IMG/VR virus record: IMGVR_UViG_3300045988_079972
Coordinates: 1-56,872 of that record
From: a virus
Direction: 5' to 3' (one strand)
Length of the DNA: 56,872 nucleotides
The notes below the pieces were generated by a model that saw only the letters and a program-made list of their open reading frames with translations, had not been told where the DNA came from and made no database searches. Positions 325-13,798 of the stretch are shown here, one piece after another. Numbering within the stretch: position 1 is the stretch's first letter; each line of letters starts with the position of its first letter. Position numbers and translations under genes: made by a program.

Positions 325-846
325 ATGATAAACAATCCTTATCAACAGCAAATGACTTATACTCCGGGTTATAACGCATATCCATATAACCCGATGCAAA
401 GATTTCAGGAGCAGCAATTACCGCAACAGCCAGTTCAACAAATGCAGCAACAACAGAATTTACAAATACAAGCAGGGATAAATGGCAGAATGGTGGCAGC
501 AGTTGAACAAATTGCAGCTAATGATGTACCTATGGATGGCTCAGTTGCATTTTTCCCTAAACAGGACTTGACGGAAATTTATGCAAAACAATGGGGTGCA
601 GACGGCTCGATAAAAACAGTCGTGTATAAGCCTTATACAGAGCCTAAAAACAGTCAAGGCATAAATAATACAGAAAATATCGAAAACTTGAAAATTGACC
701 TATCAGACGAAAGCACAGCGGTATTTATGCAGAAGTTTGATGAGATTTTTAATAAATTTGACGAGTTAGAAAACAAAATGTGTAAAAGTGCTACTTCTCA
801 AAGGAAAACTTCGACTTTAAAAAAGGAGGGCGGTGTAAATGAATAA
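325..846 (+). CDS. Hypothetical Gln/Tyr/Asn/Pro-rich protein (low-complexity N-terminus, globular C-half)
   Basis: 173-aa ORF, RBS gaggagagagaacATG; N-terminus NPYQQQMTYTPGYNAYPYNP...QQPVQQMQQQQNLQ. Confidence 0.7.
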   Translation: MINNPYQQQMTYTPGYNAYPYNPMQRFQEQQLPQQPVQQMQQQQNLQIQAGINGRMVAAVEQIAANDVPMDGSVAFFPKQDLTEIYAKQWGADGSIKTVVYKPYTEPKNSQGINNTENIENLKIDLSDESTAVFMQKFDEIFNKFDELENKMCKSATSQRKTSTLKKEGGVNE

Positions 847-1069
847 TCAGATTATGCAGATGTTAAATCAGATTAAAAATATAAAAAATCCAAAAGAAGC
901 CGCTATGAAAACATTAGAGCAAGCGGCAAATCAAGGAAATCCAATGGCAAAAAATATGTTGCAGAAAATAAACAGTGGCGACATGAATGGAGCACAGCAA
1001 ATTCTTGGTAATTTTATGAATGAACAGGGATTGAATATACAGGAAATTCAAAAACAAATTCAAAAATAG
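839..1069 (+). CDS. Hypothetical small Gln/Asn-rich helical protein
   Basis: 76-aa ORF; its start overlaps the upstream stop codon (translational coupling). Confidence 0.6.
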   Translation: MNNQIMQMLNQIKNIKNPKEAAMKTLEQAANQGNPMAKNMLQKINSGDMNGAQQILGNFMNEQGLNIQEIQKQIQK

Positions 1070-1145
1070 TACATATTAGGGTTTTGTCCGGACAATAAAA
1101 ACCAGTTCCCTATTTTGTAAATAAATCAAATGGAGGTAAACTAAT

Positions 1146-1925
1146 ATGTTTAACAACGGAGTTAGCCTTGCCGATATTGCGGCAGTAACAGGCAATAACA
1201 GAAACAATGACGGTATGTGGGGAGACGGTGCATGGTGGATTGTCATTCTTCTTATTTTCGGCTGGGGTGGTTTTGGTAACAACGGCTGGGGTAACGGTAA
1301 TGGAATGGGTTCTACTGCCGCCGCTTATACAGACAGTGCTATTCAGCGTGGATTTGATAATCAGGCTGTTGTTTCAAAACTTGATGGCATTTCTAACGGA
1401 CTTTGTGACGGTTTCTATGCTATGAACAACAGTATGCTTACTGGCTTTAATGGCATAAATACAAACATTATGCAGACAGGCTACGGCATCCAACAGGCTA
1501 TTAACGCTGATACAGTCGCTAATATGCAGAATACAAACGCTTTGCAGTCACAGATTGCTAACTGCTGCTGCGAGACGAGAGAAGCCATCCAAGGTGTAAA
1601 CTACAACATGGCTACTAACACTTGTGCTTTGCAGAACACCATGAACAACAACACGAGAGACATTATTGATAGCCAGCAGGCAGGAACGAGAGCCATCCTT
1701 GATTTCCTGACTAATGACAAGATTGCAACATTACAGGCAGAGAATAACGATTTGAGAAGAGCTGCTTCACAGGATAGACAGAACGCACTTCTGACTTCTG
1801 CCATGAGTGCACAGACACAGCAGATTGTCAACTCTGTAAATCCTACAGCTATCCCAGCCTATGTTGTGCCTAATCCTAATGCTTATGCTTATGGATGTGG
1901 TTGCAATACAGGATGTGGCTGCTAA
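1146..1925 (+). CDS. Hypothetical membrane-anchored Gly/Asn-rich protein with Cys-rich C-terminus
   Basis: 259 aa, RBS ggaggtaaactaatATG; hydrophobic WWIVILLIFGWGGFG segment, GNNGWGNGNG tract, internal CCC, C-terminal YGCGCNTGCGC. Confidence 0.7.
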   Translation: MFNNGVSLADIAAVTGNNRNNDGMWGDGAWWIVILLIFGWGGFGNNGWGNGNGMGSTAAAYTDSAIQRGFDNQAVVSKLDGISNGLCDGFYAMNNSMLTGFNGINTNIMQTGYGIQQAINADTVANMQNTNALQSQIANCCCETREAIQGVNYNMATNTCALQNTMNNNTRDIIDSQQAGTRAILDFLTNDKIATLQAENNDLRRAASQDRQNALLTSAMSAQTQQIVNSVNPTAIPAYVVPNPNAYAYGCGCNTGCGC

Positions 1926-2012
1926 AAGTAGCAGCTACGCAAAAATGAATAATTGAGTATCTTAATTGAGTTTAACTCGATTATGTCTGCTAAGCAGTAT
2001 TACTTATAATCA

Positions 2013-2045
2013 AAGGGCAGGCTATAATGTTTGCCCTTATTTTTA
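2013..2045 (+). terminator. Hairpin plus T-run between cargo genes 3 and 4
   Basis: AAGGGCA(2013-2019)/TGCCCTT(2032-2038) followed by atttttat. Confidence 0.5.
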
Positions 2046-2064
2046 TGAAAGAGAGGTAAATAAA

Positions 2065-2493
2065 ATGGCTGAATTTAGTAATGTAGCCGTACAGAATGTA
2101 GCTACAAACGGAAATGTATTATTTGCAGATACACCGACTTCAACTTGCAATAAAGGATGTATCACTCACCGCACAGGAAGTGGCTTAATCAATGTTAAGG
2201 GTGCGACAAATAATTGCCGTGCAAAGTACAGAGTAGAATTTAACGGAAATATTGCAGTTCCTGATGGTGGTACGGCAGGGGCTATATCACTTGCGATTGC
2301 AATAGAGGGTGAACCGGATTTATCGACACTGGCAATTTCTACACCGACAGCGGTTGAAGCATTTAACAATGTTTCTACGGCTACGGATGTATGGCTTTCT
2401 TGCGGATGCTGTCAGGCAATTTCTGTAAAGAACACATCTACACAGGAAATTAGTGTAGCAAATGCCAATATTACAGTTAATCGTGTTGGCTAG
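2065..2493 (+). CDS. C1q/TNF-like (BclA C-terminal-domain-like) beta-sandwich protein, putative
   Basis: Start refined to ATG 2065 (RBS gagaggtaaataaaATG). Alternating beta pattern NGNVLFAD...ITHRTGSGLINVKG...YRVEFNGNIAVP...AISLAIAIEGEP...ISVKNTS...ANANITVNRVG resembles exosporium BclA-C / C1q domains. Recognised by eye only. Confidence 0.45.
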   Translation: MAEFSNVAVQNVATNGNVLFADTPTSTCNKGCITHRTGSGLINVKGATNNCRAKYRVEFNGNIAVPDGGTAGAISLAIAIEGEPDLSTLAISTPTAVEAFNNVSTATDVWLSCGCCQAISVKNTSTQEISVANANITVNRVG

Positions 2494-2644
2494 GCTTGCT
2501 TGAAATGTATGCAAGAAGCGCATTGTCAACAATTTTGCTGATTGGTATTAGAGTTTGCTTGGAGTATTCTTTCAATTTCTTTTCAACCTCTTTGTTAAGA
2601 GTTGTCGAGAAACGGACGCGATTCTTCAGTTCATTTTTTGGCAT
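2477..2644 (-). CDS. Ribbon-helix-helix (CopG/Arc-like) DNA-binding protein
   Basis: Start refined to Met14 (RBS aaggtgg); RVRFSTTLNKEVEKKLKEYSKQTLIPISKIVDNALLAYI fits a beta-strand plus two helices; convergent 17-nt overlap with 2065-2493. Confidence 0.65.
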   Translation of the reverse strand: MPKNELKNRVRFSTTLNKEVEKKLKEYSKQTLIPISKIVDNALLAYISSKPSQHD

Positions 2645-2663
2645 ATTTGTACCACCTTTCATA

Positions 2664-2740
2664 AATTTAATTAAGTTTAACACATTTTTTTATTGAAAAC
2701 AAGAAAATAATTTGATATAATTTAATTAAAGTTAATTAAG
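2664..2740 (+). promoter_or_regulatory. Rightward sigma-A-type promoter with two copies of an AT-rich operator-like box
   Basis: TTGAAA(2693-2698), 17 nt, TGaTATAAT(-10 at 2716-2721); AATTTAATTAAGTTTAA at 2664-2680 and AATTTAATTAAAGTTAA at 2719-2735. Confidence 0.55.
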
Positions 2741-2752
2741 TGAGGTGCGAAA

Positions 2753-3406
2753 ATGGCTAGAAACAGTTTGTACAATGACTTGACAGGTATGAAATTTGGT
2801 GCACTAAAAGTATTAAAAAGGCACGAAGGGAAAACCGATATTTCAAAATCTTGTTACTGGATTTGTCAATGCGATTGTGGAAATATTGTAAGCAGAAGGA
2901 CATCGACATTAAAAAGGGCAAGTAAAGGCTCAATCCCTAATTGTGGTTGCTTAAATGCAAAAAGACTAAGGAAGTGTTCCTTATCAATGAAAAAACACGG
3001 CATGTCTAAAACAAGAATTTTTGGAATTTGGGAGAATATGCGCGACAGATGCAATAATCCTAATTCAAAGCTGTATTATTTGTATGGCGAGCGTGGAATT
3101 AAAGTTTGTGAGGAATGGTCAAATGATTTTTTGACTTTTTACAATTGGTCTATCAAGAACGGGTATAGGCAAGGATTATCCATTGACCGAATAGATGTAA
3201 ATGGAAACTATGAACCTAACAATTGTAGGTGGGCTACTGCAAAACAACAAATAAGAAACAGAAGAAATACGGTTTATGTCAATATAGGCGGCGTGAAAAA
3301 AACTTTAGGTGAACTTTCAGAAGAATATAACATTAAATACAACACCCTTTATGATAGGTATAGAAGACATAAAGGAGCATCGGATTTTAGCGATATAATT
3401 AAATAG
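2753..3406 (+). CDS. Zn-ribbon-repeat protein with degenerate HNH/NUMOD-like C-terminal DNA-binding module
   Basis: 217 aa; YWICQCDCGN...CGC repeats, then SIDRIDVNGNYEPNNCRWATAKQQIRNRR; N-terminus paralogous to 4934-5575. Confidence 0.55.
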   Translation: MARNSLYNDLTGMKFGALKVLKRHEGKTDISKSCYWICQCDCGNIVSRRTSTLKRASKGSIPNCGCLNAKRLRKCSLSMKKHGMSKTRIFGIWENMRDRCNNPNSKLYYLYGERGIKVCEEWSNDFLTFYNWSIKNGYRQGLSIDRIDVNGNYEPNNCRWATAKQQIRNRRNTVYVNIGGVKKTLGELSEEYNIKYNTLYDRYRRHKGASDFSDIIK

Positions 3407-3419
3407 GAGGCTTGATGAT

Positions 3420-4073
3420 ATGCACAAATGGGCTAAACAGATAATGGAATGCGTCAAGGCTAAGGTTGACGGAATTGGAATTGACAATTTTGAGGGGCAG
3501 AACCTTGACGATTTAAAGGATTTTACAGAAATAGCGAAGAATATAGCTTGCTTTGACAAGGATTACAGAATTGTTGAAGCTATGGAAAAGTCAGAAGATA
3601 ATGAGGATATTATGCGTATGCTTGAACAGTACGAAAATTATCCGGACAGAAGATACTATGACGCTTACCGCTATGCAAACGGCAGATTCGCCCCTAAAGG
3701 TCGTGGAACACGCAGAGGATATGAAGAACCGCCATATTATCATATGTACCCAGAAGCAGAGCATATGAGGGACATGGATAGGGATGATAGAGGAAAGATG
3801 TATTACAGCGAACCTGCAAGCAATGTGAGTGGTAGCAATAATATGTCAAGAAACTACTCTGAAAGCAACTATGACAGGGCAAAGCGTAACTATACAGAAA
3901 CAAAAGAGTTACACAAAGGGAACACTCAGGAAGATAAAGAGCATAAGATGAAATCCCTCGACGGATACATGAAAGAGTTGTCAACAGACATTACACACTT
4001 GCTCGGTGACATGACAGCAGAGGAAAAAAATCTTTTAAGAACAAAACTTAGTACACTTGTTTCTAAGATTTGA
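3420..4073 (+). CDS. Hypothetical Tyr/Arg/Asp/Asn-rich protein
   Basis: 217 aa; RRYYDAYRYANGRFAPKGRGTRRGYEEPPYYHMYPE...DRDDRGKMYY...SNVSGSNNMSRNYSESNY; no recognisable domain. Confidence 0.65.
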   Translation: MHKWAKQIMECVKAKVDGIGIDNFEGQNLDDLKDFTEIAKNIACFDKDYRIVEAMEKSEDNEDIMRMLEQYENYPDRRYYDAYRYANGRFAPKGRGTRRGYEEPPYYHMYPEAEHMRDMDRDDRGKMYYSEPASNVSGSNNMSRNYSESNYDRAKRNYTETKELHKGNTQEDKEHKMKSLDGYMKELSTDITHLLGDMTAEEKNLLRTKLSTLVSKI

Positions 4074-4484: not shown

Positions 4485-4651
4485 TGGACAATTTATTAAA
4501 GCAGATTCAAAAGACAAATCCTGATATGACAGTCGAAAAACTTATCTCTGAGATACAATATAATGACTATTTGACAGTGGCACTTATTATAAGCAAAGGA
4601 GTTGTAGAAAATGCAGAAAAATGTTACAATAGCAAACAAAAAAGGAGTTGA
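4481..4651 (+). CDS. Hypothetical small protein (56 aa)
   Basis: ATG overlaps the upstream TGA (ATGA coupling); below the ORF-track length cutoff; translated by hand. Confidence 0.4.
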   Translation: MMDNLLKQIQKTNPDMTVEKLISEIQYNDYLTVALIISKGVVENAEKCYNSKQKRS

Positions 4652-4657
4652 AAGATT

Positions 4658-4915
4658 ATGGCAGTAAAAAATGCTGATGGTGTACCTATTTCTTTTGAGT
4701 GCATGGATTTAATTAGAGAACTTGAAAGAGATATACAAGAGTTTGGTGAAGACAAGTTAATGGACGCAATAGTTGTGCATCAATGTGGGGTAGAGATTTG
4801 CAAAGATTATGACTTTTATCCGCTAGAGATGGAATTAAAAAAAGGTGAGCGAACAATAACAATGACTGCATCTGCATTGCTGGAAGTATTTAAAAAACAA
4901 AATTTAATGTTGTAA
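4658..4915 (+). CDS. Hypothetical protein
   Basis: 85 aa, RBS aaaaggagttgaaagattATG. Confidence 0.6.
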   Translation: MAVKNADGVPISFECMDLIRELERDIQEFGEDKLMDAIVVHQCGVEICKDYDFYPLEMELKKGERTITMTASALLEVFKKQNLML

Positions 4916-4933: not shown

Positions 4934-5575
4934 ATGAAAAATATAGACGATATGATTGGGAAAAAATTCGGAAAATGGAGCGTTTTATCTCTTTCTGACA
5001 AAAAAGATGTAAGTAATAACAGATATTATAATTGTAGATGTGAATGTGGGAATACAGGTGTTGTAGCAGGTTGTAAGTTACGCAGTGGGAGGAGCAAGTC
5101 TTGCGGTTGTAATAGAACTCTTGATATGACAGGGGAGAAGATAGGAAATTTAACTTTTATAAAGCCAGTAGGGATGGAACAGGGACGGTATATTTGGGAA
5201 TGTCAATGTGATTGTGGGAATATCATCCGAAAAACAATATCAGATGCAAAAAACATTAAATCTTGCGGTTGCGTGCAGAAAAAATCAGCACAAAAAAGCA
5301 TAAAAGAAAATTCGAAAAGACTAACAAGAGTAGACAACACCTGTCTAAATAGTTTAACTCAAAAAACATCTAAAAATAACACTTCTGGAATCAAAGGCGT
5401 AAGTTGGAATTCTAAAAGAAAAAAATGGATTGCTCAGATAACATTTAAAGGGAAAAATTACGGTTTAGGGAGCTACTCAACTAAAGAAGAAGCGATACGA
5501 GCAAGAAAAGAAGCAGAAGAAAAATTGTTTAAACCAATTTTAGAAAAATATAATTATGAAAAGAAAGACGAGTAG
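4934..5575 (+). CDS. Zn-ribbon-repeat protein with C-terminal AP2 DNA-binding domain
   Basis: 213 aa; two CxCxCGN...CGC units; NTSGIKGVSWNSKRKKWIAQITFKGKNYGLGSYSTKEEAIRARKEAE matches the AP2/ERF-integrase fold signature. Confidence 0.65.
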   Translation: MKNIDDMIGKKFGKWSVLSLSDKKDVSNNRYYNCRCECGNTGVVAGCKLRSGRSKSCGCNRTLDMTGEKIGNLTFIKPVGMEQGRYIWECQCDCGNIIRKTISDAKNIKSCGCVQKKSAQKSIKENSKRLTRVDNTCLNSLTQKTSKNNTSGIKGVSWNSKRKKWIAQITFKGKNYGLGSYSTKEEAIRARKEAEEKLFKPILEKYNYEKKDE

Positions 5576-5754: not shown

Positions 5755-6420
5755 ATGAGCAGTCCCGAAAATGATTTTATAATTGTAAACACGAAAGAAG
5801 ATGTATTGCGTGAAAGATACATTGCAGGAGCAGAGTTAGTCGGGAAATATGATTTCCCAAAGCTGCAATCAATTCGGGCAAATTTAGAAGATGTTGAGCC
5901 GGTACCATTTAATCTTGCAAGTAAAGAAAAGCATCCGAAAAATTGTGTTTGCCATTTTTTTATAGATGATGTACGGTTTGAGCGACTTTGGAACAATCCA
6001 AGTAAATACATGGATATACTGAAAAACTTTAAGTATGTATGCAGTCCCGACTTTACTTTCTATGATGATATGCCCCTTGCTTTGCAAATATGGCAGATAT
6101 ACAGAAGTCGGGCATTAAGCTATTGTTTAAACCGAGCCGGTTTGAAGATTATCCCGGCTGTAGGCTGGGGAAGTGAAGAAACATACGACTATTGCTTTGA
6201 TGGTTTACCAATACACTCCACGCTTGCGGTATCGACAAACGGATGCTTTTCAGCAGAGGGGAAAGAATGTTATAGAAAAGGATTTAAAGAAATGTGCAGG
6301 CGATTGGAACCGAAGCAAGTTGTTGTTTTTGGTTCTCAAATTGATGTTGATATAGATGTAGATATTGTTTATAAATCGAGCTACTGGCAACAAATGAGCG
6401 AACGGCTAAAAAAGAGGTGA
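5755..6420 (+). CDS. DUF4417-family protein
   Basis: 221 aa; CHFFIDDVRFERLWNNP...VCSPDFTFYDDMPLALQIWQIYRSRALSYCLNRAGLKIIPAVGW matches my recollection of the DUF4417 signature. Confidence 0.6.
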   Translation: MSSPENDFIIVNTKEDVLRERYIAGAELVGKYDFPKLQSIRANLEDVEPVPFNLASKEKHPKNCVCHFFIDDVRFERLWNNPSKYMDILKNFKYVCSPDFTFYDDMPLALQIWQIYRSRALSYCLNRAGLKIIPAVGWGSEETYDYCFDGLPIHSTLAVSTNGCFSAEGKECYRKGFKEMCRRLEPKQVVVFGSQIDVDIDVDIVYKSSYWQQMSERLKKR

Positions 6421-6571: not shown

Positions 6572-6670
6572 CAACTATACAGCGGTTATTATATATATGG
6601 ATAGAAAAAACAAGGCTAAGAAGAAAAATGGCTATATAAAGCCGTAGCAAAGAGATAAAGAGACACGAAA

Positions 6671-6698
6671 AAAGAGACTTTTTACAGTCTCTTTTTTT
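6671..6698. terminator. Terminator between converging transcription units
   Basis: AAAGAGACT/AGTCTCTTT stem flanked by an A-run and a T-run. Confidence 0.75.
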
Positions 6699-6788
6699 CC
6701 AAAATGTATCTATTAAATTTGTTAATAGTTAAATATAAATTATTATTTACATCCCAAAATTGTTTCTATTAAATATATAGTATTACTT

Positions 6789-7004
6789 TTACTTTTTAAG
6801 CAAGTTTTGAATGTCAATTAAGATTTTTGACATAATAACTTGCTTTTCGCTGTCGTGCATTTCATCGTCAAGAATTCCTGCACTTTCTGAACTTGCGTCA
6901 ATATTCAACGCTGTACAGATACGAATATACGCATCTGCAAATTTTACGCTATCATGCTGTTCTTTTGCATTCAACATTTTTAAATATAATTCCTTATATT
7001 TCAT
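6789..7004 (-). CDS. Hypothetical small protein (leftward operon, gene 7)
   Basis: 71 aa, RBS aaaaggaggtgagag. Confidence 0.6.
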   Translation of the reverse strand: MKYKELYLKMLNAKEQHDSVKFADAYIRICTALNIDASSESAGILDDEMHDSEKQVIMSKILIDIQNLLKK

Positions 7005-7448: not shown

Positions 7449-7829
7449 TTATGAATAAATCAAGTTGTAAGCATCTAAATATTCTGAATGTTTTTTGACA
7501 AATTCAATTTGTGCTTTTTGTGCTTCGTCTGAATTTTTGCCTGAATGCAAAATTTCATAAAACAAATTGACAAGCTCCATTTTTTGAGAGTTTACAATTT
7601 TGCATTTTTCACGCTCTTTTTTATCAAAAAGCATGAAGACCCAGGAATAAGCATTCCGCTCGCAGTCTATTCTGTGATTTTTGCAAAACTTTTCAATAAC
7701 AGGAGTGAATGCGATATATTCACTCTGGTTGTCGAACTTTATGTAGCAGCCGACGCCACCAACTGTATTTTTGAAAGTTTCGTATTTTAAATTATATTTT
7801 TTGCAAAAAACAATAATTTTATTTACCAT
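7449..7829 (-). CDS. Hypothetical protein (leftward operon, gene 4)
   Basis: 126 aa, RBS attaggagggcaaaaag. Confidence 0.65.
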   Translation of the reverse strand: MVNKIIVFCKKYNLKYETFKNTVGGVGCYIKFDNQSEYIAFTPVIEKFCKNHRIDCERNAYSWVFMLFDKKEREKCKIVNSQKMELVNLFYEILHSGKNSDEAQKAQIEFVKKHSEYLDAYNLIYS

Positions 7830-7856: not shown

Positions 7857-7900
7857 AGCAAGCCGGGGAATCGAACCCCGGAAAAGTGCCGACACTTGCC
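7857..7900 (-). ncRNA. tRNA-like acceptor/T-arm minihelix (no D arm or anticodon arm) inside the leftward operon
   Basis: Minus-strand read GGCAAGT-gtcggcacttttc-CGGGG-TTCGATT-CCCCG-GCTTGCT-T: canonical T-loop; 7-bp acceptor-like stem (5 Watson-Crick and 2 G-U pairs). Confidence 0.45.
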
Positions 7901-8193
7901 TAAATACAACTTTTGAGTGCTAATCTTTTGACCTCTTCGCATTTGACATTAACAAGATATTTTGCTCGGTCAAAATTAACCTTTCCACCTGTGCAATTAA
8001 CAATGTAATTTGCACATTCTATGTATTTGTTAAATTCTTTTTCGTATGCCTTATCAAAGGCTTTTTCTAACTCTGCATCTTCTGGGTTCTTTTCCCACCT
8101 CTTTTCTATTGTGTCGCAAGTTCTTGCAAGCTCACAATATTCGTCAATCAGTTCATGTAATTTTTTCATCATATCAACCGTCCTTTCTGCCAT
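7900..8193 (-). CDS. Hypothetical protein (leftward operon, gene 3)
   Basis: 97 aa; start could instead be Met8 (8172), which has the better RBS aaagga. Confidence 0.55.
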   Translation of the reverse strand: MAERTVDMMKKLHELIDEYCELARTCDTIEKRWEKNPEDAELEKAFDKAYEKEFNKYIECANYIVNCTGGKVNFDRAKYLVNVKCEEVKRLALKSCI

Positions 8194-11422: not shown

Positions 11423-11755
11423 ATGACTGGCAATGAGTATCAAAAGTTTGCAAACAGAACTTGCAGTATTACAGAAAACAAAACGGATATGCTGCATCAT
11501 GCAGTATTCGGTTTAACATCTGAGGCAGGAGAAGTAGCCGGGATGTTACAAAAGAAATATCAGGGGCACGAATTTGATATAGACCATTTCAAGAAAGAAT
11601 TAGGAGATTGTACATGGATGATTGCGGAAGCGTGTACTGCGGTCGGAATAACTCTTGACGATGTATTTAACACGAATATCAAGAAATTAAAGAAACGCTA
11701 TCCTGATGGTTTTACAACAGAAAATTCACTGCATAGGGCAGAAAATGATATATAA
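11423..11755 (+). CDS. mazG: MazG-like nucleoside triphosphate pyrophosphohydrolase
   Basis: EYQKFANRT...LHHAVFGLTSEAGEVAGMLQKK...KKELGDCTWMIAEACTAVGITLDDVFNTNIKKLKKRYPDGF matches the all-alpha MazG signature. Confidence 0.8.
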   Translation: MTGNEYQKFANRTCSITENKTDMLHHAVFGLTSEAGEVAGMLQKKYQGHEFDIDHFKKELGDCTWMIAEACTAVGITLDDVFNTNIKKLKKRYPDGFTTENSLHRAENDI

Positions 11756-11913
11756 GAGTGAGGTGAAGAGATATGGCAATTAGAGCACCAACAATTTAAA
11801 GTGAAACATTTTTTGAAACTTGTTTAACATTTGTATTTTAATTCATATCTTTAGTACTTCATAAAAATATTACATATCACACACCGCAAGGCGATAACAG
11901 TCTTGCGGAATAA

Positions 11914-11985
11914 TGGGGTATCGCCAAGAGGTTAAGGCATAGCACTTTGACTGCTACATCATGGGTTCAAATCCCATTACCCCAG
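11914..11985 (+). tRNA. tRNA-Gln (anticodon TTG)
   Basis: Hand-folded cloverleaf: acceptor TGGGGTA/TACCCCA, anticodon arm TAGCA-CTTTGAC-TGCTA, T-arm ATGGG-TTCAAAT-CCCAT. Confidence 0.85.
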
Positions 11986-12240
11986 TTTGGCAAGATGCCA
12001 TCTTTGTTTTTCTTCTTGCAAAATCGCGGAGAAAAACTCCTTTCCCACACTAGCGGAATGCTGATTAAAGAGCCATCGCACGGCTCGGTGTGGTTGTTCG
12101 GGTGTCTATCCCACGATGCCCGAACTTACATACTTTTTCCGTACTGGACTAATGTAGTTCCATTACAACTTTCACACCCACCCATAACACACAGGTGCTT
12201 GCATACCATCTTAAAGCCTATACATAGGTGTATGCAGTTT

Positions 12241-12312
12241 TGGCATATAGTTCAGTGGTAGAACGCCTGACTGTTAATCAGGATGTCGCAGGTTCGATAC
12301 CTGCTATGCCAG
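12241..12312 (+). tRNA. tRNA-Asn (anticodon GTT)
   Basis: Acceptor TGGCATA/TATGCCA, D-arm GTTC-AGTGGTA-GAAC, anticodon arm CCTGA-CTGTTAA-TCAGG, T-arm GCAGG-TTCGATA-CCTGC. Confidence 0.9.
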
Positions 12313-12318
12313 TTAAAC

Positions 12319-12371
12319 AGAGTAAGCATGGTGTAGAATGGTGGTTCGAGTCCACCTGTGAGCATAACTCT
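12319..12371 (+). ncRNA. Truncated tRNA-like element (canonical T-arm, no D or anticodon arm)
   Basis: AGAGT-aagcatggtgtagaat-GGTGG-TTCGAGT-CCACC-tgtgagcata-ACTCT; shares AGAGTA...ATGGTGT with the minihelix at 13197. Confidence 0.35.
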
Positions 12372-12430
12372 AGCGAAAAAGGTACTCACCGCTTCTTTCC
12401 TAATGTTCTTAGCGATATAAAGAAAATTAG

Positions 12431-12520
12431 GGGCGAACGGCAACGATTGGTGGTGTTGCGGCAGACTGTAAATCTGTTCCCATGTGGTAAACAATAGAGG
12501 TTCGATTCCTCTTTCGCCCA
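12431..12520 (+). tRNA. tRNA-Tyr (anticodon GTA), long variable arm
   Basis: Acceptor GGGCGAA/TTCGCCC, anticodon arm GCAGA-CTGTAAA-TCTGT, 18-nt variable arm, T-arm AGAGG-TTCGATT-CCTCT. Confidence 0.85.
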
Positions 12521-12523
12521 TTT

Positions 12524-12606
12524 GCAGATATGGTGTAATGGTATCACAGTAGCTTGCTAAGCTATCCAGTAGAAATGCTGTCAAGGTTCGAATCCTTGTG
12601 CCTGCG
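12524..12606 (+). tRNA. tRNA-Ser (anticodon GCT), long variable arm
   Basis: Acceptor GCAGATA/TGCCTGC (one A-C mismatch), anticodon arm GTAGC-TTGCTAA-GCTAT, 16-nt variable arm, T-arm CAAGG-TTCGAAT-CCTTG. Confidence 0.75.
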
Positions 12607-12799
12607 TTATGTCAACACTTGTGCAGAAACCAATGTCGGCAATGGAAGAACAGAAACTAGCTGTTGACATTATACTTTTACTCTCGACAAACATCAATAA
12701 GGATGGTTCGGGAACGGTATAACAAAGTCCGTATGAATTATACAAATATAGCAACAAAAATAATTCAATCCGTAAGTAGATGCTATGAGCTTACGGTTT

Positions 12800-12917
12800 C
12801 GGATAGTAGCTTAATGGCAGAGCTTCCTCGGAGCCGAAAGTGTAAGAATAAGGATGGTGCACACGAATTATTCTGAGAAAAAGCAGAGTGGCAGAGGTTC
12901 GATTCCTCTCTATCCGG
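12800..12917 (+). ncRNA. Oversized tRNA-like RNA (118 nt): intact acceptor, D and T arms but expanded, unfoldable core
   Basis: CGGATAG/CTATCCG acceptor, GCTT-AATGGCA-GAGC D-arm, AGAGG-TTCGATT-CCTCT T-arm (identical to tRNA-Tyr); 68 nt between the D and T arms, including the AGAATAA/TTATTCT hairpin; I could not fold a standard anticodon arm. Confidence 0.45.
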
Positions 12918-13016
12918 TTTATTTGGTCAGTGATATGCTGTTGGCTTAACTGGTGGTCTATGTCATGGCTGAATACAATACACGCCCACGCAAAAATACT
13001 AGTTACGACGCGGGTG

Positions 13017-13128
13017 GTAGATAGTGACGGAATAGGTAAACGGAATTGTCGTAGAGAATTGGGTGCAATCGACAACTTAGCTACCCAGGTTGCGCACTCC
13101 TGTGTGGTGCAAATCCACACCTATCTAC
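13017..13128 (+). ncRNA. Oversized tRNA-like RNA (112 nt) with 8-bp acceptor-like stem and 6-bp T-like stem
   Basis: GTAGATAG/CTATCTAC; GTGTGG-TGCAAAT-CCACAC; the core holds a long bulged hairpin TTGTCG..ATTG-GGTG-CAATCGACAA and the direct repeat ACGGAAT x2. Confidence 0.4.
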
Positions 13129-13196
13129 TTATCCCTGGCAATTACAAGGATAGCTGATAAACAGGCTTTTTAAAGCTCCTCCTAACAGTATGAAGA

Positions 13197-13243
13197 AGAG
13201 TAGACAGATGGTGTTTTATCCGGTTCGATTCCGGACTACTCTT
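13197..13243 (+). ncRNA. tRNA-like acceptor/T-arm minihelix (47 nt)
   Basis: AGAGTAG-acagatggtgtttta-TCCGG-TTCGATT-CCGGA-CTACTCT-T: perfect 7-bp acceptor stem and canonical T-arm; no D or anticodon arm. Confidence 0.5.
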
Positions 13244-13282
13244 TACTAAATTAACTTTAAAATATTAGAAAAGGAGTAAATA

Positions 13283-13798
13283 ATGGATAATTTACAGCAA
13301 CACAAACAGCTTTTACAACAAATACATGATACATATTTCAAGAAAAATCATGATTATGGCGATAGCTTTAGTCGTTCATTTAAGAAATATGGATTAGTAG
13401 CGGCTATGGTTCGCATGGAAGATAAATGGAACAGACTTGATAATATGGCATCAGGAGCAGAACAGAAAGTTGCTGACGAAACTATAAGAGATACGCTGTT
13501 AGACCTTGCTGGATATTGCGTTATGACAACGATGGAACTGGACAGAGAGAAAGACAACGCAAATCAAAAAGCATTTGAAGAACAGGTTCGGGATGAATAT
13601 GCCGAAGTTTTTGGAGAAGATAACGAGAACGAAAAAGAAACAGATACTTCTAATAAAACATCAGCGGAAAAGAGTTCTATTGATGTAGGCAAGGTAATGG
13701 CTTTACATAATGCCAAATGGTCGCAGGCAAAAATTGCTGACGAAATGGGATGTTCACAAAGCATGGTATGTAAGATTATTAAAAAATATAAACAGTGA
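13283..13798 (+). CDS. DUF1599-like all-alpha (MazG/NTP-PPase-superfamily-like) domain fused to a C-terminal HTH
   Basis: KKNHDYGDSFSRSFKKYGLVAAMVRMEDKWNRLDNM...IRDTLLDLAGYCVMT, then an acidic linker, then KWSQAKIADEMGCSQSMVCKIIKKY. Confidence 0.55.
   Translation: MDNLQQHKQLLQQIHDTYFKKNHDYGDSFSRSFKKYGLVAAMVRMEDKWNRLDNMASGAEQKVADETIRDTLLDLAGYCVMTTMELDREKDNANQKAFEEQVRDEYAEVFGEDNENEKETDTSNKTSAEKSSIDVGKVMALHNAKWSQAKIADEMGCSQSMVCKIIKKYKQ

Follow-up and report, generated by a model that had tools for sequence, protein, structure and literature searches.

Conserved tRNA-like RNAs without an anticodon arm accompany four decoding tRNAs in a phage tRNA island

INTRODUCTION

Why would a phage keep, among its tRNA genes, a series of tRNA-shaped elements that have no anticodon arm? 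The question is raised by a tRNA island of about 1.4 kb in the IMG/VR virus record IMGVR_UViG_3300045988_079972, whose 56,872 nt we call the window. A first reading of this DNA, the original prediction, had described the island (11880-13260) as a mixture of four canonical tRNAs, at least four aberrant tRNA-like RNAs, and long structured spacers. Here, we present evidence that the island encodes at least four non-decoding mimics of the upper half of a tRNA that are under selection: a 49-nt motif within a spacer (12045-12093) and three units of 118, 112, and 47 nt. The evidence comes from two or more RNA families that covary and are strand specific, from a tRNA-like unit without sequence variation, and from a conserved minihelix; all are co-oriented with the real tRNAs. 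The reading that we favor, with some confidence, is that of a co-oriented small-RNA array in which four decoding tRNAs stand beside anticodon-less tRNA mimics that are released as stable non-decoding RNAs.

RESULTS

More T-arms than tRNAs

A strict scan for T-arms (5-bp stem, loop T[TG]C[AG]ANN) returned eight on the + strand between 11961 and 13219, seven with GGTTCRA-type loops and one with a TGCAAAT loop. Nine had been counted before; the cluster is real, and the ninth was presumably a degenerate GTTCGGG site at ~12096 or ~12705. The clustering is far beyond chance, because the other ~55 kb of the window yield only six matches, five of them AT-rich chance occurrences and one real (minus strand, ~7880). 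ARAGORN finds exactly four tRNAs in the whole window, all within the flagged region and all as expected (Gln, Asn, Tyr, and Ser), and the Rfam tRNA model at gathering thresholds confirms Gln, Asn, and Ser.

The remaining T-arms belong to units that standard tools do not fold as ordinary tRNAs. With default settings ARAGORN calls none of them, and Rfam accepts the 118-nt unit only by skipping 61 nt; the tRNA model has no match at E<=10 to the 112-nt, 53-nt, or 47-nt units. The four aberrant units lie where they had been placed (12319-12371, 12800-12917, 13017-13128, and 13197-13243). They had been said to combine good acceptor and T stems with wrong cores, which is true of the 118-, 112-, and 47-nt units and not of the 53-nt unit, which lacks an acceptor stem in tRNA register. 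Their homologues are conserved, and two of the families described below covary. For these comparisons we retrieved 25 related IMG/VR loci with the protein encoded downstream; retrieved loci have designations beginning with L.

The 112-nt unit belongs to a large family with a tRNA-Leu-like chassis

The 112-nt unit consists of the following parts:

13017-13128, + strand: 112-nt member of the UGCAAAU-loop family, built on a tRNA-Leu-like chassis
13018-13024 / 13121-13127, + strand: acceptor stem
13025-13026, + strand: U8-G9
13027-13043, + strand: D-arm
~13044-13101, + strand: cargo
13102-13120, + strand: T-arm GTGTGG-TGCAAAT-CCACAC
13128, + strand: discriminator C

The acceptor stem is of 7 bp in the family and extends to 8 bp in the window copy. 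Among close relatives, the first 26 and the last 31 nt of the unit are conserved, while the 60-110 nt between them are wholly different; the inserts of two of these relatives (L007 and L015) are homologous to each other and carry compensatory hairpin changes. The exact T-arm GTGTGGTGCAAATCCACAC is present in at least 119 viral contigs of IMG/VR, beside many different acceptor 3' strands, and in each case the complementary acceptor 7-mer lies directly 5' of UG-GCGG-AAUAGGUARA-CGC, the D-arm of class II tRNA-Leu. A 20-nt seed from this D-arm retrieves at least another 120 IMG/VR contigs. About seven ordinary tRNA-Leu genes of 81-84 nt are among the matches listed, and most of the others end in N6-UGCAAAU-N6' followed by the acceptor 3' strand.

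To extract the family without bias, we searched for the D-arm with a regular expression and took the first TGCAAAT downstream, demanding no base pairing. This gave 126 distinct scaffolds with 74 acceptor and 27 T-stem sequences. The acceptor is fully paired (7/7) in 104 of the 126 scaffolds and the T-stem (6/6) in 113. In the resulting alignment (A1), 96.4% of the cells are paired, against 68.6% after shuffling (0/500), double changes affect 14 of 16 pairs, and the covariation score is 0.709, compared with <=0.17 in slid controls. The listed strand is the functional one, because G-U pairs outnumber A-C mismatches by 53 to 15. Little or no variation is seen at U8, A14, A15, G18, G19, the U preceding the T-stem, and the UGCAAAU loop.

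Family elements measure 60-262 nt (median, 130). A 5-bp/7-nt anticodon arm is present in none of 112 members; the insert takes the place of both the anticodon and the variable arms and can be as short as ~10 nt. Only 3 of 130 elements encode CCA, and U stands at position 74 in 58%. In Bacillus subtilis, CCA-less tRNA precursors are cleaved by RNase Z, and the rarity of CCA together with the frequent U74 matches such precursors. Uniform leucylation of the family is unlikely: A73 is an identity element for leucyl-tRNA synthetase (LeuRS) in bacteria, and the discriminator of the family varies (A73 in 56%). Neither ARAGORN nor Rfam calls the 112-nt unit or the family elements that we tried.

Two side observations concern this unit and its family. 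One subgroup found with the D-arm seed (L284, L230, L242, L200, L245, L207, and L175) has a normal 5' half and acceptor, a 3' end of the form ...CUCG(U/G)CAAAUCCCUGC, and a 5' T-stem strand that is not adjacent, as if an insert lay within the T-loop or the arm were split. The other is a hairpin directly 5' of the unit, 97-100% conserved in relatives whichever cargo the 112-nt unit holds:

12984-13016: 33-nt leader hairpin, CGCCCACG ... CGCGGGUG

A second covarying family hides in a spacer

The 254-nt spacer between tRNA-Gln and tRNA-Asn had been described as structured, and it does fold far better than shuffled sequences (z = -3.94). What had been missed is the conserved, covarying motif that it contains:

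12037-12093, + strand: three-helix mini-cloverleaf motif with its leader, inside the Gln-Asn spacer (49-nt core, 12045-12093)
12037-12044, + strand: leader, CUCCUUUC
12045-12050 / 12088-12093, + strand: P1, CCACAC/GUGUGG
12051-12063, + strand: P2, UAGC-GGAAU-GCUG
12070-12086, + strand: P3, GAGCC-AUCGCAC-GGCUC
12096-12102 / 12119-12125, + strand: GC-rich hairpin GTTCGGG/CCCGAAC, directly 3' of the motif, seen in the sequence and in the spacer fold

Many IMG/VR phage tRNA islands that are otherwise unrelated contain the motif with 77-90% identity, usually preceded by the CUCCUUUC leader. Its position is constant: a tRNA or a UGCAAAU-loop family member always lies ~45-60 nt upstream. Its consensus has AGC/GCU in P2 with a GGAAW loop and GAGCC/GGCUC in P3 with a 7-nt loop, NUCRCAM. 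In an alignment of 25 distinct sequences (A2), 98.4% of the cells are paired, against 86.1% after shuffling (0/500), and 7 of 15 pairs show double changes. With 33 G-U pairs and a single A-C mismatch, the RNA is on the + strand. A small minus-strand open reading frame (ORF) using GAAAGGAG, the complement of the leader, was considered and rejected; the clades do not share its start codon, and the G-U pattern points to the + strand. The motif has no Rfam match at E<=10 and no blastn match in cultured phages. Its fold would correspond to a tRNA cloverleaf from which the anticodon arm has been removed, with a 6-bp "acceptor," a D-arm-like hairpin whose loop contains GG, and, next to the 3' acceptor strand, a hairpin resembling a T-arm.

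In other clades, the position of 12096-12125 is taken by another hairpin. The two GC-rich stems singled out by the original prediction are both present, this one and one near 12609-12670, which heads the spacer after tRNA-Ser:

12609-12617 / 12663-12671, + strand: 9-bp inverted repeat, ATGTCAACA ... TGTTGACAT

The first 66 nt of that spacer are 97-100% identical in relatives with differing downstream content.

An invariant 118-nt unit with an insert in place of the anticodon arm

The third element has the most tRNA-like core:

12800-12917, + strand: 118-nt tRNA-like RNA with a perfect 7-bp acceptor (CGGATAG/CTATCCG) abutting the T-stem and with normal D- and T-arms
12893-12909, + strand: its T-arm, AGAGGTTCGATTCCTCT

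In place of the anticodon stem-loop it has 61 nt that include a 7-bp hairpin (AGAAUAA/UUAUUCU), and against Rfam RF00005 it scores 40.7 bits (gathering, 29), with these 61 nt inserted for 15 anticodon-arm positions. The unit is 100% identical in 10 related loci. None of its 118 sites varies, compared with 22 of 192 in the adjacent spacer; at the spacer rate, zero variable sites would arise with a probability below 1e-6, which implies purifying selection or a very recent sweep. Its T-arm is, as had been noticed, identical to that of tRNA-Tyr. This 17-nt arm is the sole similarity of the two, and duplication followed by divergence, the origin that had been proposed for the array, is not the main story: the island is a mosaic of cassettes and the 112-nt family is spread over unrelated phages. 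In L146, the 5' half of the 118-nt unit is joined to another insert and T-arm, beside yet another anticodon-less unit, an arrangement that points to modular recombination.

Could the two long units be tRNA genes interrupted by introns, spliced into decoding tRNAs? The single large insertion with which the Rfam model takes 12800-12917 would fit, and ARAGORN, run with its intron option and a lowered threshold, proposes a tRNA-Ala(UGC) with a 27-nt intron. However, that solution comes at the price of a mismatched stem and a threshold of 70-80%, and no anticodon arm with a 5-bp stem and a 7-nt loop can be rebuilt in either unit. Within the family, both the anticodon and the variable arms give way to the insert, which may shrink to ~10 nt. 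The Rfam scan of 11700-13400 at E<=10 has no group I intron or other ribozyme, and we know of no tRNA splicing endonuclease in Firmicutes, the hosts concerned. We regard splicing as hardly credible.

An antisense role of the inserts on the phage's own genome was also considered and dropped. The 112-nt cargo has no match of >=11 nt elsewhere in the window, and the only match of the 118-nt insert is a 12-nt direct repeat in the neighboring spacer.

Phages and chromosomes that carry the UGCAAAU-loop family

Members of the family occur in cultured phages, where they are unannotated, and in bacterial chromosomes:

Bacillus phage SPP1 (NC_004166, ~6645-6812; L173, 1493-1660): located between gene 9 and gene 11, with the family member at ~6645-6745 (T-stem GCUAGG/CCUAGC) and then a minihelix
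Bacillus phage phi3T: after yonN
Listeria monocytogenes phage LP-LmcIH1-8: after lmaC
Enterococcus phage VEsP-1: after the gene of an ArpU-family regulator
Leuconostoc phage Ln-9: after an HNH gene and followed by a terminator
Latilactobacillus phages: intergenic, ~2 kb upstream of the HNH and small-terminase genes
Listeria sensu lato chromosomes, nine species: L153, ~4530-4680 (Listeria cornellensis); L154, L160, L161, L163, L165, L167, L168, and L172

In SPP1, the order of family member and minihelix is that of the window (13017-13243), and a dubious minus-strand annotation, "gene 10," overlies the RNA. Scans of bacterial genomes add Enterococcus, Pediococcus, Latilactobacillus, and Lachnospiraceae; at least the Enterococcus faecalis copy adjoins terminase and portal genes. 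In the Listeria chromosomes, each copy is bracketed at the acceptor stem by a promoter and a terminator of its own and lies just downstream of azlC-azlD (branched-chain amino acid export), facing a convergent DUF1361 gene. The position of a tRNA-Leu-like RNA beside an exporter related to leucine may be coincidental or meaningful.

Across 172 nonredundant contexts, conserved neighbors are always co-oriented with the family element: YopX, MazG, and helix-turn-helix (HTH) regulators upstream and HNH, TerS, and TerL downstream. The family therefore marks the boundary between the early and packaging modules. The search for a dedicated protein partner by clustering these neighbors gave only generic genes of the module boundary.

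The inserts fall into discrete classes. Chassis that differ in their acceptor stems can hold inserts of one class, with compensatory changes between them. Cargo class A, common to VEsP-1, gut phages, and a Lachnospiraceae metagenome-assembled genome, has a multi-helix fold in which 20 of 45 predicted pairs are retained through double changes, together with long invariant single-stranded blocks.

The family is absent from Rfam 15, and the SPP1 genome re-annotation names no RNA between genes 9 and 11. We found no description of the family in the literature searched, although papers beyond that literature may hold one; a paper on cabRNA turned out to be an incidental sequence match. Hence, the family is large and apparently undescribed.

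Minihelices, and the question of punctuation

The array ends with a unit reduced to its acceptor and T helices, and the window contains a second, unrelated one on the other strand:

13197-13243, + strand: 47-nt minihelix, last unit of the array; acceptor AGAGTAG/CTACTCT, 15-nt D-loop-like linker, T-arm TCCGG-TTCGATT-CCGGA
7857-7900, - strand: 44-nt minihelix; acceptor GGCAAGU/GCUUGCU (two G-U pairs), T-arm CGGGG-TTCGATT-CCCCG

The 47-nt minihelix is present in nearly all relatives with 85-100% identity, and there are G-U-compatible stem changes and several loop variants. The 44-nt minihelix (GGCAAGC ... CGGGG-TTCGATT-CCCCG-GCTTGCT) has relatives in L051, L139, L028, L036, and L138. Short anticodon-less units recur as several independent families; in the retrieved loci, 40 units are shorter than 69 nt, versus 11 in the control.

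The placement of these elements suggests another explanation, in which the units, above all the minihelices, are cis-acting punctuation: RNase P and RNase Z signals that separate the array from adjacent mRNAs and have no RNA function of their own. Much as with the tRNAs of mitochondrial transcripts, the cuts would determine the 5' end, the stability, or the translation of the late or packaging message that follows. The 47-nt minihelix ends ~25 nt upstream of the ribosome-binding site (RBS) of ORF 13283-13798, and the minus-strand minihelix fills exactly the gap between the stop of ORF 7900-8193(-) and the RBS of ORF 7449-7829(-). An ORF starts within 80 nt downstream of 16 of 36 short anticodon-less units, compared with 16 of 247 canonical tRNAs, counts that are not independent and are dominated by a few families. 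The large family, too, lies just upstream of HNH, TerS, and TerL. For the minihelices this explanation is attractive. For the array it seems doubtful, since it leaves unexplained both the structured cargo, conserved within classes and swapped between phages, and the Listeria copies, with a promoter and a terminator of their own and a convergent neighboring gene.

A mosaic island with conserved units

The island of the related phages is a mosaic of exchangeable cassettes, in which the decoding tRNAs take part:

11914-11985, + strand: tRNA-Gln(UUG), canonical, first unit of the array (ARAGORN; Rfam tRNA, 63.9 bits); 96-100% identity in 20 related loci
12240-12313, + strand: tRNA-Asn(GUU), canonical (ARAGORN; Rfam tRNA, 74.4 bits); 84-100% identity among relatives
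12431-12520, + strand: tRNA-Tyr(GUA), class II (ARAGORN); 100% identity in L005 and L018
12523-12607, + strand: tRNA-Ser(GCU), canonical class II (ARAGORN; Rfam tRNA, 54.3 bits)
12319-12371, + strand: 53-nt unit; T-arm GGTGG-TTCGAGT-CCACC (12340-12356) closed by AGAGT/ACTCT

tRNA-Gln and the 254-nt spacer are found together in ~20 related loci with 91-99% identity. The Asn position is a variable slot, occupied in two relatives (L001 and L004) by tRNA-Trp(CCA), and the Tyr, Ser, Leu, 118-nt, and 53-nt cassettes come and go. tRNA-Tyr has an unusually long D-stem (6 bp, GCAACG/UGUUGC), and its best match in the Rfam clan is tRNA-Sec (35 bits, under threshold), ahead of the general tRNA model; a copy with 81% identity is found on the human-gut phage contig MT835739. 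The 53-nt unit does not fold notably better than expected (z = -0.62) and has only three homologues, L005 and L018 among them; a block that partly resembles it lies inside the insert of a family member in L045.

Such a mosaic invites the view that the odd units are decaying tRNA pseudogenes or functionless scars of recombination. The rarity of the 53-nt unit, found in three loci and without tRNA register, and the loss of 4 nt from the 5' acceptor strand in the minihelix of L018 are in line with it. Yet decay of the 49-nt motif and the 112-nt unit is contradicted by strong covariation in the two families, and no site of the 118-nt unit varies whereas the spacer beside it does. Moreover, the family spans phages of Bacillus, Listeria, Enterococcus, Leuconostoc, and Latilactobacillus as well as gut metagenomes and includes chromosomal copies with their own promoter and terminator. 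Decay is thus a very improbable explanation, and pseudogenes and spliced tRNAs are both largely excluded. An attP site or partial tRNA fragment was likewise rejected, as both acceptor strands are present and covary and several units stand in tandem beside packaging genes.

The phage and other RNAs of such islands

The window is a siphovirus-like gut phage genome of ~36% GC. The nearest record to its TerL is from Dulem virus 39 (78% identity), followed at a greater distance by Clostridium, Streptococcus, and Lactococcus phages and human-gut contigs; blastn detected no close cultured relatives, only matches at the level of tRNAs. The island separates the end of the early/nucleotide-metabolism module (MazG) from the packaging genes downstream, and its immediate neighbors are as follows:

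11423-11755: MazG-like pyrophosphatase gene, upstream
13283-13798: gene for a DUF1599 ("nucleotide modification associated domain 1") and HTH protein, downstream

DUF4417 and AP2-domain proteins are encoded further upstream (5755-6420 and 4934-5575), and together these neighbors hint at a nucleotide or DNA modification module. The first two ORFs of the window (325-1925) encode Gln/Asn/Gly-rich low-complexity proteins, e.g., MINNPYQQQMTYTPGYNAYPYNPMQRFQEQQLPQQPVQQMQQQQ. The original prediction had linked the four decoded amino acids to the proteins encoded at 325-4073. Relative to the rest of the phage, these are indeed enriched in Asn (10.3 versus 6.1%) and Gln (5.1 versus 3.5%), but not in Tyr (4.8 versus 4.4%) or Ser (6.1 versus 6.6%).

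Rfam at gathering thresholds returns only three tRNA matches in the window, with nothing else credible at E<=10. ARAGORN in tmRNA mode is negative in 11700-13400 and in the whole window, and Rfam gives no tmRNA match. Y RNA, group I introns, ribozymes, and ROOL/GOLLD were discarded as identities, having no Rfam matches in the window (11700-13400 at E<=10). The tRNA islands of related phages do contain ROOL (338 bits; L128, 9230-9810), RAGATH-27 (L094, 6448-6531), and a type II hammerhead ribozyme (L101, 7964-8029). Such islands appear to be general hot spots for structured RNAs. In the retrieved loci, ARAGORN also reports unusual tRNAs, those with a 4-nt anticodon directly upstream of members of the UGCAAAU-loop family:

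L044, 1304-1389, and L045, 1521-1606; L060, 4216-4295, L096, 536-615, and L050, 570-648: suppressor-type tRNAs with a UUA anticodon (reading UAA stops) and tRNAs with a 4-nt anticodon (GUGC)

DISCUSSION

The structures that we describe are conserved, covarying, and strand specific, their inserts fall into discrete structured classes, and their genomic position is conserved. The mimics keep the acceptor stem, U8, the D-loop G18-G19, the T-arm, and the coaxial acceptor/T helix, with the 6-bp T-stem and G55 of the 112-nt family as exceptions. The kept parts are those recognized by RNase P, RNase Z, the CCA-adding enzyme, and elbow-binding factors. In the minihelix and mini-cloverleaf, nothing stands where the anticodon arm would be; in the 118- and 112-nt units, a structured cargo domain does.

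Judging from its sequence, the array is probably co-transcribed, and its mimics may be processed, accumulate, and even act in trans. Host RNase P and RNase Z would cut each unit from the precursor, and the CCA-adding enzyme would then add CCA, a step that we propose because CCA is not encoded. The products would accumulate as stable RNAs unable to decode. Their tRNA part would serve as a chassis for processing and stability, and the interchangeable insert would be the effector. A broader version of this idea, which we put forward only tentatively, is that a tRNA-Leu-derived chassis (acceptor stem, D-arm, and UGCAAAU T-arm) serves Firmicutes phages, and certain of their hosts, as a natural "tRNA scaffold" for the display of interchangeable structured RNA domains. 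Host enzymes of tRNA maturation would release these domains to act in trans on host or phage targets, and the minihelices and mini-cloverleaves of the arrays would be empty or minimal versions of the scaffold.

Several observations weigh against the release of stable non-decoding RNAs with such roles. The effector role of the cargo is a guess, because no dedicated protein partner is consistently encoded nearby; among the clustered neighbors there is no tRNA-related enzyme either. Position 55 in the T-loop of the family is G in place of the nearly universal U, and the elbow of these RNAs may therefore differ from that of real tRNAs. The discriminator is A in 73 of 130 elements (56%) and otherwise U, G, or C, with C in the window copy and U in the Listeria copies. 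The 118-nt unit and the 112-nt cargo are represented by a single variant or nearly so, which makes their internal folds mere predictions, with minimum free energy z scores of only -1.1 and -1.0. Finally, the 53-nt unit fits no part of the proposed scheme.

The same kept parts could also make the units decoys. Non-decoding tRNA bodies would then titrate host factors that bind the acceptor end or the elbow, protecting the real tRNAs or rewiring host regulation; tRNA-targeting defense nucleases or toxins, sensors of the nucleotidyltransferase type, and T-box leaders are conceivable targets. Phage tRNAs are established as a counter to tRNA-cleaving defenses. What is conserved in the mimics is only what such factors contact, several independent anticodon-less families recur in phage tRNA islands (the 40 units below 69 nt, against 11 in the control), and cassettes turn over rapidly between close relatives, as in an arms race. 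Still, the case for decoys is entirely inferential. No defense or anti-defense gene is linked to the units, anticodon nucleases require the anticodon loop that the units lack, and neither the conserved complex folds of the cargo nor the chromosomal copies of Listeria are explained. We consider decoys unlikely and retain the small-RNA array as our reading.

These RNAs could matter in several ways. The family shares the logic of the T4 "passenger" RNAs, a tRNA body without its decoding arm, and brings it into tractable systems (SPP1, phi3T, Listeria and Enterococcus phages, and Listeria chromosomes). Its elements are at present unannotated or covered by spurious small ORFs (SPP1 "gene 10," phi3T_57, and LPLmcIH18_0065). 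A natural tRNA that carries structured RNA domains is of interest for RNA engineering and for the evolution of phage tRNA islands. If the scaffold idea were true, there would be a general class of phage effector RNAs in SPP1, phi3T, and A118-like Listeria phages, and a route to the 50-year-old question of the role of T4 RNAs C and D.

Comparison with known systems

The passenger RNAs of the T4 tRNA cluster have been known since the 1970s. RNAs C and D are stable RNAs, their role not known, at the end of that cluster (PMC3014915, PMC9697503), and they are the closest precedent for the present case. Also called species 1 and 2 RNA (rnaC and rnaD), they are encoded, like the mimics, in a phage tRNA cluster on the same strand and are not tRNAs. 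The original prediction had invoked them as a precedent for non-tRNA passengers, and the comparison, in architecture, proves apt: the extra elements of the window are conserved, and T4 rnaC (L299, 1409-1547) also has no anticodon arm. Its 3' ~93 nt form an 8-bp acceptor-like helix, ACGGAACG/CGUUUCGU, beside a CCGGG-TTCGAAT-CCCGG arm, with ~60 nt in place of the D and anticodon regions, and Rfam gives it only a weak tRNA-Sec alignment (17.5 bits). However, rnaC has no sequence similarity to the UGCAAAU-loop family, has ~46 extra nt 5' of the acceptor helix, and has a normal T-loop, whereas the family has a tRNA-Leu-like D-arm, the UGCAAAU loop, a 6-bp T-stem, and swappable cargo and occurs in Firmicutes phages and chromosomes.

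With class II tRNA-Leu, the family shares U8, the D-arm GCGG-AAUAGGUAGA-CGC, A14, A15, G18-G19, and the U before the T-stem (A15-U48-like). It differs in the lack of an anticodon arm and of a regular variable arm, in the UGCAAAU loop (G for U55), in the 6-bp T-stem, and in a discriminator that is A in only 56%.

Other natural RNAs combine a tRNA-like body with something else or share the genomic niche. YrlA and other bacterial Y RNAs, tRNA-mimicking partners of Ro60, join a tRNA-like module (T-arm, D-arm, and acceptor-like stem) to a second module (PMC4201824), as the family does. Yet their topology is permuted, both ends of the RNA lie in the Ro-binding stem, the "acceptor" is a closed stem-loop, and a Ro60/TROVE gene is adjacent. 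In the family, the ends flank the acceptor stem and no TROVE is found among the conserved neighbors, with a subset of the window's ORFs scanned; a Y-RNA match is also lacking in Rfam. ROOL and GOLLD are large structured RNAs, their role not known, that typically lie beside tRNAs in Firmicutes prophages (PMC5737381). They occupy the same niche, and one ROOL is found beside a family member in L128, but they are 580-800 nt long, are not tRNA shaped, and have their own Rfam models, which have no match in the window.

In design, the nearest counterpart is artificial. In engineered "tRNA scaffold" RNAs, an aptamer replaces the anticodon arm and the chimera is processed and stabilized like a tRNA; here the arrangement is natural and comes with many classes of cargo. 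RNAs of this kind, tRNA-like and non-coding, are thus already known, and what appears to be new here is a widespread and strongly supported member.

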